A DNA stretch of 64,000 nt. It comes from Eledone cirrhosa. Its lineage: Eukaryota. Below the pieces are notes generated by a model, which worked only from the letters and a program-made list of their open reading frames with translations, searched no databases and was not told the DNA's origin. This document shows, piece by piece, positions 830-46,830 of this stretch; position 1 is the stretch's first letter, and each line of letters opens with the position of its first letter. The stretch spans positions 20,460,001 to 20,524,000 of the forward strand of contig OZ024757.1 of the NCBI GenBank assembly GCA_964016885.1. The letters are read 5' to 3'. A program made the position numbers and the translations under genes.

Positions 830-900
830 TATTTTATCTGATGAGAACGCAAATATCATCCCATGATGATATTTGTTTTTGAAATGCGCATAATAAAATA
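830..900 (+). ncRNA. Type I minimal hammerhead ribozyme motif (Penelope-like)
   Basis: Stem I tattttat/ataaaata; CTGATGA 838-844; stem II caaatatcatc/gatgatatttg; GAAA 881-884; palindromic stem III ATGCGCAT; AUA triplet, predicted cut after 892. Confidence 0.8.
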
Positions 901-30934: not shown

Positions 30935-31000
30935 TATTTTATCTGATGAGGACGTACTGATGAAACAGCTCAGTACCTCTGAAATATGTATAATAAAATA
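30935..31000 (+). ncRNA. Type I minimal hammerhead motif
   Basis: tattttat CTGATGA ggac-gtactga..tcagtac-ctct GAAA tatgta TA ataaaata. Confidence 0.75.
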
Positions 31001-42871: not shown

Positions 42872-44540
42872 GCAATTTGCTTACAAACTAAAAATGTTAA
42901 AGTTCAAGGCATTTGATTACTGACAATTGTTTCTTCTCACAATGATATGCCATGTAGAGCAAATCGTTTCATTTAACAATTTCCCATCAGTGAGTATAGA
43001 CTATGGGTGTCAGCGGAGTTTAATTAAAATACCAATACAAGTCACCCAGGAAAAAAGAACAGATAATATATATCACTCATCAAAGTATCAAGATAAAAGA
43101 TTAGAGTTACAATTATAGTTTTAAAAACATTGTAATTAGAAAAATATAGTGTCAGTTGTGTTAAAACCCCAATTCATTTAACCAAGTACACAACCCACAG
43201 CTCATAAAAACATAATGACAGAACAAAGGAAAGACTCAAAATAACAAATAAGTTACTGAGGAGGTCACTGAATATGTGACAATGTGACAAAAGAACTTTG
43301 ACAATAAACAAATAAACAACCATCCGGTTATTAAACAAACCAACTGGAAGTTTATAATAAATTGAAGTGAAAACAAAAAAAAGAGAGCATGTGTTTTTAT
43401 TGGCAGCATGACACTCCCAAAGTATAACAATATTTGCTTCAACACACGTTTTTAGATAAGAAATCTCGCAAAACAAATACAAAAAAACGAAACCCTCTTC
43501 CCATTCGAAGGAGGTAGATTCTATATTTGTGATGCCACATCGGGTGACATGTTCTCTGCCTCAAACTTAGTCACTTTGACCACAAGCCCCGGTACTGTGG
43601 CCTGCAATGCAGAGGAAAAGAGGACAAACAAGGATTATCTGGCTGCATCCTAATCACATCTGTCGCCGTTGAGACCTCAGATGTACTAAGACCCCGTACT
43701 GCCGAGCTCCTCAAGAAGCCCATATGAGGAAGGACCCCCACCCCCGCGAAATGGGGTGACTGTTACAGCAAGCCTCGCTGGCCATTATCCACTGAAATGT
43801 TTTTGTGGTCTTGTTCATGGGGAAGCAGCCCCAACACCGCCAAGCTCTAGGCCCAGAGCCCATCATCCACCAGCCTTCCCCCTTCCTGTGGCCCTAGAGT
43901 CCTTGCTTTTCCTTTCATAGTCATTTCCTCTACTTCGCCATACAGCCAGATTTACCCACCCTTACCACTTCTCCACTTTCTCATTACTTAATTTTGATTT
44001 TATCTTTCTTTCTCATATTTATTTGGCTTTTGAAAATAAAATTATACTTTTGCTATTTGACCGTCGAAGATCGGTAGTTCACACAAATAAAAAAAATATA
44101 TATATATAAGATGATATAAATATAACATCACACACACACACATATATATATTTGCATGCAAATAAAATACTTGACTGAAAATCAAGAATATTCTTTTTAT
44201 AATATATCGACAAATTCTTCCAAAATAAACACAAACATGTTTAGTTTGTTAAAAAAAAAAATTCTTAGATAAAACAATGAATTATTTTTTGGAGCTTTTT
44301 TTTTTTTTCATTATATTCTCATACAACAAACTACAGAGAGAAAAAATTAAATTACAAATAAATACATAAATCGATGAATAAATCAAAATAAATATCAATA
44401 AAAATAGAAGAAAATGAGAGTAACTATGAAAGGTTCTGGTGATAGAATAACAACTAATGGTAAGTACTTTTGTTAGTATTGTTAGGAGAGAAAGAGAGAG
44501 ACAGATATAGAGTGACAGAGATATGAATATATATATATAT

Positions 44541-44909
44541 TATAATAGAATATAAAAGAAAAGCGAACACAGATATATAGATATATGTGTTCAAATTGTA
44601 AGGGACCTTATTCGCTAAGGTGAAAAGAATACTAACTATAGACAATTGGGTCTAGGATACTAATTTATCACCCACTGATGAGCTTGGATTAGTATTTCTA
44701 TTCACAATTAATTTTGCGAAACAACAACAAGTTGTCTGGGTGATTGGTAGTTACCACAATTCCGGTTTGTAATTATTTTCTTAAATTGAGACAAGTGAAC
44801 CCTATTGTCTATAGTTAGTATTCTTTTCACCTTAGCGAATCAGGTCCCTTACGATTTGAACACATATATCTATATATCTGTGTTCGCTTTTCTTTTATAT
44901 TCTATTATA
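44541..44909. mobile_element. Fold-back element (arms about 110 bp) enclosing a hammerhead in its spacer, with TA-rich flanks
   Basis: 44541-44651 versus 44799-44909 inverted with about 3 mismatches; hammerhead at 44667-44744 in the spacer. Confidence 0.8.
44667..44744 (+). ncRNA. Complete type I hammerhead ribozyme motif (GUC)
   Basis: Stem I atcaccca/tgggtgat (8 bp); CTGATGA 44675-44681; stem II closed by gc/gc; GAA 44718-44720; stem III acaac/gttgt with a 5-nt loop; GTC, predicted cut after 44736. Confidence 0.85.
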
Positions 44910-44992
44910 ATATACAGCTCAGAAATATCTCTTTCTTAGAGGTATTTTGTTGTAAGAGACTATTTTGAGTTCCTAACTCAATATATACCTTT

Positions 44993-45023
<31 letters not shown>

Positions 45024-46224
45024 GGAGAGAGAGAGAGACAGAGAGAGAGAGAGAAGTATAATTTTCATCAAATTTTTCATTTGAAAATATCAAAACCCAC
45101 AAGATCTGAAAGAGATTTTTAAAAAAGCGAAGAAAAATGAAGGAAAAATGACTTAAATTTCTAAATGATTGCCAAGGTGTGGTGATTATAAGAGTATAAG
45201 AGAATTTTTAGGATATTTACAATATAGTGGTACAATGATGATGATGATGATGATAAATATATACCTCAATTTGGCATCAGTCTATTATGTACTAATCTAA
45301 TTTGTTATATTTACCAACAAAATATAGTGTCCTGGTGTCCAGACACAAACTATAGTGTCCAACATAAAGTCTAATGTCCAGATATCAAATATGGTTGTAT
45401 TTAATTATTGTCTAGCAACAGGTCAGCTCTGGTCAAGCTGACCTAGATGGTGTGGAAACCTGGCTGCTATATCTAGCAAGTCTGGAAACCACACAAAGGC
45501 TAAGTTTCTAATCCATTTTGAAGTGAGCCATTCAGTGTCAGTGCAAGGGAAATAACTCTGCAGAACATTGTTCAAGGCGAGAAACTGCAGTAGTTATCAA
45601 AATAAGAAAGCGATAAATGAACTTTTCATTATTTTTCTTATTTGACAAAATTTTTCCTTTAAAATTTGAAAGAATAGTCGTTGTATATATATCTGTATTA
45701 TGCTAACATATTTTACAAATATCCAAGAATATAAACAAGATATTAATGATATACCTTTCATTTTGAGAAAAAATACAGTGATCAAGATACGATAACTATC
45801 TAGTGATCTTTTATATTTCAGGATAGTTACCTGGATTTTCTAGAAATATCTGGCAACAGTTGTTCCATTTTCCTATCTGGCAACAGTTGTTCCATTTTCC
45901 TATCAACTCTCGCAAGGTAACTGAAGCCCTCTGACATAAAGTTATTAAGATGAAGAGTGATGGACTCTCTCTCTCTCTCGGTCATTGGAAGGGAAGTTAG
46001 CCTTCCAATGAGAGTTATATCATTAATATCTTGTTTATACCCTTGATTATTTAGAAAATATTTTAGCACAACACAGATATATATACTATGAATATTCTTT
46101 CAAATTCTAAAGGAAAAATTTTGTCAAATAAGAAAAATAATGAAAAATTAATTTATCGTTCTCTTATTCTGATTGCTACTGCATTAAACAGTAATCTAAA
46201 AAGACTGTTTTATGAATATTACAG

Positions 46225-46830
46225 CTCCCATGACTTTCGGAAACATTATTTCATGCTTAGAGTTGCTGAAGCATGGAATAAACTGCCTGCATCAGTTGTT
46301 AGCTGTTGAGACACTGCATCTTTTAAAACCTCCATGGAACAAACTGCCTGCGTCAGTTGTTAGCTGCCGAGACACTGCATCTTTTAAAACCTCCATGGAA
46401 CAAACTGCCTGCGTCAGTTGTTAGCTGCCGAGACACTGCATCCTTTAAAACCTCCATGGAACAAACTGCCTGCGTCAGTTGTTAGCTGCCGAGACACTGC
46501 ATCCTTTAAAACCTCCATGGAACAAACTGCCTGCGTCAGTTGTTAGCTGCCGAGACACTGCATCTTTTAAAACCTCCATGGAACAAACTGCCTGCGTCAG
46601 TTGTTAGCTGCCGAGACACTGCATCCTTTAAAACTCTCATGCTTCCCGAAATTCGCCAAAACTACACCTGACGTCCCCCTTCCATACACATGCACACGTG
46701 TATATCATGACTCATGCTCTGTTCATTTTCCTGACGTTTGTACATTACCCTATGTATTTTACATACACTTTTTGATAAGTTGTAGTGCACCTGAGCACTG
46801 TACACAATATTTTCATTATTATTATTATTA
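46225..46830 (+). mobile_element. CR1/L2-like LINE 3' end with a 61-bp x6 tandem expansion (46275-46635)
   Basis: Unit ggaacaaactgcctgcgtcagttgttagctgccgagacactgcatc.tttaaaacctccat; period of 61 at 46336, 46397 and 46458. Confidence 0.88.

Follow-up and report, generated by a model that had tools for sequence, protein, structure and literature searches.

A back-to-back insertion of a non-coding hammerhead repeat in Eledone cirrhosa, probably written into TA repeats by a Penelope-like enzyme

Results

Two head-to-head copies of one repeat unit form the mirror-armed insertion

The window, that is, the whole 64,000-nucleotide stretch of Eledone cirrhosa DNA analysed here, carries an inverted repeat whose two arms, at 44536-44651 and 44799-44914, are 116 nt each, 97% complementary and separated by a 147-nt spacer. 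TA repeats flank it on both sides, the left one (44526-44540) lying within an AG/TA microsatellite and the right one (44993-45012) being followed by (AG)n. The first-pass annotation had described arms of about 110 bp around a spacer of about 147 nt in a TA-rich setting, and in both respects it is borne out; the fold energy of -204 kcal/mol (z -28) merely restates the inverted repeat. The element end that it placed at 44909 has to be moved: the insertion spans 44536-44999.

On a 496-nt tandem unit, numbered from m1 as the first base 3′ of the ribozyme cleavage site, the insertion reads as inverted m74-m189 joined to sense m407 through the cleavage site to m274, namely two copies joined 5′-to-5′, of which the shorter is inverted and the longer is sense. 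The inverted 5′-truncated copy (44536-44651, minus strand), formerly the left arm, stops at A (~m189), the first of two fixed 3′ ends of the family, and the sense 5′-truncated copy (44647-44999, plus strand) at B (~m274), the second; they meet in a 5-nt overlap (microhomology) at 44647-44651. The former right arm (44799-44914, plus strand) is the mirrored m74-m189 part of the sense copy, within a region common to six sister families, and the sense copy runs beyond it as a one-sided, unmirrored tail of 85 nt (m190-m274; 44915-44999, plus strand) between the two fixed ends. As the inverted arm holds only m74-m189 of the unit and the sense copy continues to m274, these 85 nt belong to the element. 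The sense copy, with 353 nt, is shorter than one unit and has one ribozyme only, and the two arms differ at 2 of 101 nt.

Other repeats lie downstream. A second fold-back at 45586-46183 has 177-nt arms, 88% alike and separated by 244 nt; its loop contains a 27-nt tandem duplication, and the descriptor calls no hammerhead in this fold-back. A tandem array of six copies of a 61-nt unit, 97% alike, occupies 46272-46634. Another repeat, 460 nt downstream, contains at 45462-45476 a motif (1 match, 0.03 expected) conserved at about m315-335, a unit part that is absent from the window copy; this motif could possibly be a promoter element.

A type I hammerhead with a two-base-pair stem II lies in the sense copy

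The plus strand at 44667-44744 holds a type I hammerhead, called with a hand-written descriptor, with a CUGANGA plus GAAA core, an NUH site, stems I-III and an open stem I. Stem I (44667-74/44737-44) has 8 bp, followed by CUGAUGA (44675-81), stem II (44682-83/44716-17), GAAA (44718-21) and stem III (44721-25/44731-35), which has 5 bp with a 5-nt loop, and the GUC triplet places the predicted cut after C44736. A full GUC hammerhead had been proposed here, and stem I, the looped stem III and the cleavage position stand as described, while stem II needs correction, having just 2 bp that close a 32-nt loop. The descriptor search on both strands of the window returned four type I motifs, of which this one is the best-formed as a monomer, in agreement with its earlier ranking as the best ribozyme candidate of the window, since stem III is palindromic and loopless in the remaining three. 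These three are minimal hammerheads of other repeat families, at 838-892 (plus), 30943-30992 (plus) and 30363-30315 (minus), and the same minimal types recur in many fetched loci.

An Rfam scan of the window gave no match at the gathering score, and the Rfam hammerhead families gave none in 44500-45050 at E<=10, the long loop II being the likely reason that those models fail. That the motif is real rests on how it is conserved, and how it covaries, among the copies and the sister families. Stems I and III show covariation when copies and family D are compared, and 51 of the 60 ribozyme-spanning copies (from 50 of 51 sites) match the intact-core pattern, two of them loosely (hence 49-51/60); the window ribozyme is thus typical rather than special. 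A copy 87 kb away (L007) is identical to it over 110 nt. In nested folding of 44650-44760, stem I scores 0.93, stem III 0.42 and stem II 0.00. The modelled hammerhead is predicted to cut after C44736 as a monomer. With one ribozyme and less than one unit, the window copy cannot release a unit circle, and a host transcript containing it would receive no more than one cut.

Loop II is predicted to pair with the 5′ flank

Immediately before stem I, the 5′ flank at 44655-44666 (plus) is complementary to the loop II segment at 44686-44697 (plus), forming a predicted helix of 12 bp with 8 Watson-Crick pairs in a row. It would be a pseudoknot if stem I formed, although the folding program handles nested structures only. 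When the whole insertion is folded, stem I drops to 0.36 and the flank-loop helix reaches 0.50; because the two compete, this helix may inhibit rather than help.

The helix was noticed after the fact, and a helix of 12 bp also arises in 78 of 5000 shuffles of the loop. Across 37 aligned copies (34 of family A and 3 of family D; alignment A1, in which 11 of 37 rows with stem III misaligned by a 3-nt indel were set aside for two pairs), 96.8% of the 442 pseudoknot cells pair, against 37-58% in slid registers. Six of the 12 pairs vary on one side and two on both, and the pair-level covariation count is matched by 81 of 500 shuffles, that is, it does not go beyond chance shuffles. In each of the six families (A-F) loop II can pair with the family's own 5′ flank, at -15.0 to -21.4 kcal/mol and with differing sequences, a duplex strength that 0-15 of 1000 shuffles attain. 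Pairing with the own partner ranks first in 4/6 rows and 4/6 columns, and a cross-family partner is equal or better in 2/6 and 2/6; as the six families are related, these pairings are not independent trials. We lean slightly towards an activating role, in which the pseudoknot would hold the 2-bp stem II beside stem I; alternatively, the same helix may act as an off-switch.

The window copy belongs to a 496-nt tandem repeat family

The genome (3.0 Gb, 1796 contigs) was searched with the 379-nt element as query, giving 2321 candidates, 40 of them scored, of which 8 places align end to end and most others match only from the spacer onward. The sample described below, which is no census, comprises the best-scoring 30 loci of these 2321 and the best-scoring 30 of 2579 candidates from a second search, picked for the ribozyme or m184-434, and the 60 loci represent 51 distinct sites. 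The identical breakpoints of three copies (L040, L041 and L050, contig C13) likely reflect a segmental duplication.

A natural tandem (L014) has 496 nt between successive cleavage sites, and the spacing is 495-496 nt at 2 distinct sites. The unit has 33% GC and is non-coding, its longest ATG-started frame being 29 aa; no PLE (Penelope-like element) protein match was found in it, and a search for a tRNA-derived head found 0 genes at six loci. Arms longer than one unit make up 30 of 83, and the longest sampled arm, 853 nt, is still below two units. At the level of the family, then, one type I hammerhead per tandem unit goes together with the lack of coding capacity, as in a retrozyme, and the window copy has less than one unit. 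The element had been called young, which can be kept only in a moderate sense: the copies are on average 95% identical to the majority sequence of the family and the nearest sampled relatives of the window copy differ from it by 3.5-4.3%, against the 2/101 nt between its own arms.

Searches with the shared region m56-m274 found five further non-coding tandem families, with units of 547-549 nt (B), 524-531 nt (C), 508 nt (D), about 559 nt (E) and about 498 nt (F). The families are 68-78% alike in the shared part and alignable across the whole unit, and among the profile matches of the sister families inverted partners are present, as are both of the end classes described here. In family E (L223:1900-2030, L221-L250) the core is UUGAUAA or UUGAAAA in 21/21 matched copies, with a long stem III insert; U3-A8 there takes the place of the C3-G8 pair, and this covariant is said to occur naturally (PMC3088659, in the part available to us). 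In family F (L213:1320-1400, L191-L220) the core is CAGAAGA, with A at position 4, in 9/11 matched copies, and the stems are intact. Families B, C and E (L126, L174, L223) have in common a stem III insert of about 60 nt, a potential long hairpin, which is absent from A, D and F.

Two fixed 3′ ends and variable 5′ truncation recur across insertions

Head-to-head pairs occur at 41 of the 51 distinct sites, and in 30 of the 41 one end lies at ~m189 and the other at ~m274, with one pair each having two like ends and nine having another end; after two duplicates with identical breakpoints are dropped, the ~m189/~m274 pairing holds for 28 of 39. The fixed 3′ ends, 85 nt apart, are exact at m189 in 26 cases and at m274 in 39, and either may sit on the short arm. 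The 5′ breakpoints scatter round the unit, the short arms measure 26-602 nt (n=39), and the ribozyme lies in one arm in 30/39, in both arms in 8/39 and in neither in 1/39. Additionally, 63 of the 79 fixed ends have (TA)4 within 30 nt outside them, compared with 11% for background windows, and junction overlaps of 1-8 nt are common. The features of a PLE insertion are therefore present, namely 5′ truncation with an inverted truncated copy (41/51), a one-sided tail and (TA)n targets.

This footprint bears on the fixed arm-ribozyme-arm layout assumed by the first-pass annotation. A MITE-like fold-back DNA element with a captured hammerhead, or a retroelement of such fixed layout, would account for the 8 places that match the 379-nt query end to end, for the ribozyme being confined to one arm, i.e. 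the loop, in most pairs, and for the TA flanks, which fit Tc1/mariner targets. However, the arms are internal to the 496-nt unit, their length and breakpoints vary by copy, the 85-nt tail is unmirrored, either end may be on the short arm and the ribozyme can be in both arms, and we consider this explanation highly improbable. The genome check of arm copies goes partly against the assumed layout, as arms and breakpoints vary among copies and the unit is a 496-nt tandem monomer. As a MITE or fold-back DNA transposon the element was rejected, fixed terminal inverted repeats not being found. Insertion itself likely produced the mirror arms, which would then not be the ends of a fold-back transposon, and the accompanying proposal of movement through RNA rather than as a MITE is likely right.

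Another explanation lets a different enzyme mobilise the repeat and the inverted arm form after or beside insertion, through LINE-type twin priming, cDNA fold-back or DNA repair. The common junction overlaps suit it, as do the greater likeness of arms within than between insertions (see below) and remnants in the window that we take to be LINE. It is nonetheless very unlikely, as the ends are fixed and different, with A pairing with B in 28/39 where fold-back copying predicts identical ends, and the element has no poly(A) or 3′ repeat of its own.

The RNA template was probably circular or uncut

Cleavage sites are crossed by 57 of 83 arms, five of which cross two, and 1/83 starts within 5 nt of a cleavage site; these read-through counts are biased upward, since the sampled loci were chosen for the ribozyme or m184-434. 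Because copies run through cleavage sites, we infer that the template was circular or else an uncut multimer, rather than a linear monomer released by cleavage. Within an insertion the arms differ at 113 of 2826 nt (4.0%), whereas the difference between insertions is 6.0%; of 28 pairs, 5 were too short, and in 18 of the other 23 the own arm lies nearer than the median. All three L014 units carry the same rare stem I change. Together these observations partly support one source per insertion. Arm-sharing figures obtained via reference mapping (88/337 against 80/7155) were set aside, as that mapping inflates differences (L007: 12/54, against 1/43 by direct alignment). An A-to-G excess, as a sign of an edited RNA stage, was not seen (A>G 11.7 and T>C 11.8 per 1000).

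Coding Penelope-like elements are abundant, and none examined ends in this repeat

A GIY-YIG family search of the genome gave 10595 candidates, 150 of them scored, and elements with RT plus GIY-YIG are abundant; the seven frames scanned included three with RT and GIY-YIG, two with RT and two with GIY-YIG. Among 50 GIY-YIG loci examined, none has the shared region as its own end, and six hold it, in each case as an insertion of its own next to the coding element. The GIY-YIG search, 20 long-frame regions and queries with four neighbouring relatives plus a fifth together gave no coding partner, only further non-coding tandem families, and tblastn with six PLE proteins matched only neighbouring elements. 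The repeat as an autonomous Penelope-like element was therefore rejected, with no RT plus GIY-YIG ORF tied to this end among the 50 loci.

Two arrangements were noted in these loci. At L250:1700-2050 a family E end abuts, downstream and in the same orientation, the 5′-truncated GIY-YIG part of a coding Penelope-like element; either adjacency or a template switch could produce this, and from the sequence we read it as probable adjacency. L091, L092, L096, L099 and L100 represent one young coding Penelope-like family with frames of up to 938 aa, whose shared 3′ region exceeds 900 nt and is without the hammerhead core in the part read.

The copies could instead be cut-short pseudo-LTR ends of an unfound coding Penelope-like element, made from an uncut linear transcript with no retrozyme circle. 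The same insertion footprint would be expected, uncut RNA is the main substrate in the available part of PMC11167929, no sampled arm reaches two units, and the loci examined are 50 of 10595 candidates. Against this, what lies upstream of a unit is always another unit and never coding sequence, at 51/51 sites, the five sister families are likewise tandem units of about 500-560 nt, and the six PLE proteins match neighbouring elements only; we judge this explanation unlikely.

Discussion

Based on these findings, we propose with good confidence that the stretch is a single insertion of a non-LTR retrozyme, namely the non-coding 496-nt hammerhead repeat, present as two 5′-truncated copies back to back and likely written into (TA)n by a Penelope-like RT/GIY-YIG enzyme. 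First, the enzyme would nick both strands of the TA repeat, and cDNA would start at two internal sites, m189 and m274, of a circular or uncut multimeric RNA. Each cDNA copy would then stop early and the two 5′ ends would join by microhomology, so that the mirror arms would be whatever part of the unit both copies happen to cover. By analogy, m189 and m274 may be RT start sites like those that bound the PLE tail. Counting against this proposal, no coding partner was found among the 50 GIY-YIG loci, and the tail has 85 nt, compared with the published 30-40 nt. The window copy itself is an ordinary and likely dead-end insertion.

A wider scheme can be put forward only tentatively, as a possibility that we rate well below the proposal above. 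At least six circular retrozyme RNAs of about 500 nt might share a recognition region for a Penelope-type enzyme, each circle being copied twice, once at each nicked TA strand and from each of the two starts 85 nt apart, and their hammerheads might be switched by the loop II/5′-flank helix, forming only in the precursor or the circle. If true, such a helix would explain how circles arise yet survive uncut as templates. Additionally, the predicted pseudoknot bears on how a hammerhead with a 2-bp stem II works as a monomer or stays off in circles, a point left open by PMC7229834 as far as the available text goes.

The retrozyme kind itself is already known (PMC7229834; bioRxiv 10.64898/2026.07.22.740005, both in the parts consulted), and in those parts the mobilisation of animal retrozymes by PLEs is proposed from co-occurrence and sequence kinship. 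If the reading is right, the one-end-per-arm footprint would be direct genomic evidence for such PLE-driven movement, and it gives two exact predicted start positions. For annotation, such insertions resemble MITEs and could be misfiled. The literature searched, supplements aside, yielded nothing on this 496-nt family, on the 85-nt tail, on the strict one-end-per-arm rule or on the predicted pseudoknot; in the available parts of these sources, cephalopod repeat annotation (PMC13282606) has 0 mentions of hammerhead or ribozyme, the word 'inverted' has 0 occurrences in PMC7229834, and 'pseudoknot' has 0 in PMC7229834 and in PMC4209133. Likewise, no report of a pseudoknot in retrozyme hammerheads was found in that literature, again apart from supplements, and an identical topology in the figures or supplements of PMC3088659, a source seen in part, is conceivable.

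According to the available part of PMC3088659, pseudoknots speed hammerheads with a stem II of 1-2 bp and occur in all three types, in about 40% of representatives. The present motif resembles these in its short stem II and in the predicted Watson-Crick contact of stem I and stem II regions, but differs from that set in that the predicted helix, of 12 bp or in two parts, links loop II with the 5′ flank, and in being a repetitive animal type I motif. It also resembles the hammerheads in PLE pseudo-LTRs (PMC4209133, as far as available) as a type I motif near an element end, with long-helix-III variants as in sister families B, C and E; however, the animal ones there are mostly minimal, whereas the window motif has a looped stem III.

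PLE insertions, in the portions of the sources at hand, are truncated at the 5′ end, where they also carry a truncated copy in inverted orientation, and have a tail of 30-40 bp at one of their ends (PMC8557442). A purified PLE protein introduces nicks into each strand of AT-rich DNA and begins synthesis at two internal positions of the RNA, which bound the tail (PMC11167929). The insertions described here are like these endonuclease-positive ones in the 5′ truncation, the inverted copy, the one-sided tail, the (TA)n targets and a hammerhead upstream of the start sites, and unlike them in having no ORF, an 85-nt tail and A and B ends mostly placed one per arm. Finally, the family resembles metazoan non-LTR retrozymes, as far as the consulted parts of PMC7229834 and bioRxiv 10.64898/2026.07.22.740005 describe them, in its tandem unit, which is low in GC (33%), does not code for protein and has a single type I hammerhead, its thousands of candidate copies and its co-occurrence with Penelope-like elements, the proposed helpers. 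Although those retrozymes have units of about 220-390 nt, the present family, known here from DNA alone, has a 496-nt unit and occurs mostly as less than two units, head-to-head.
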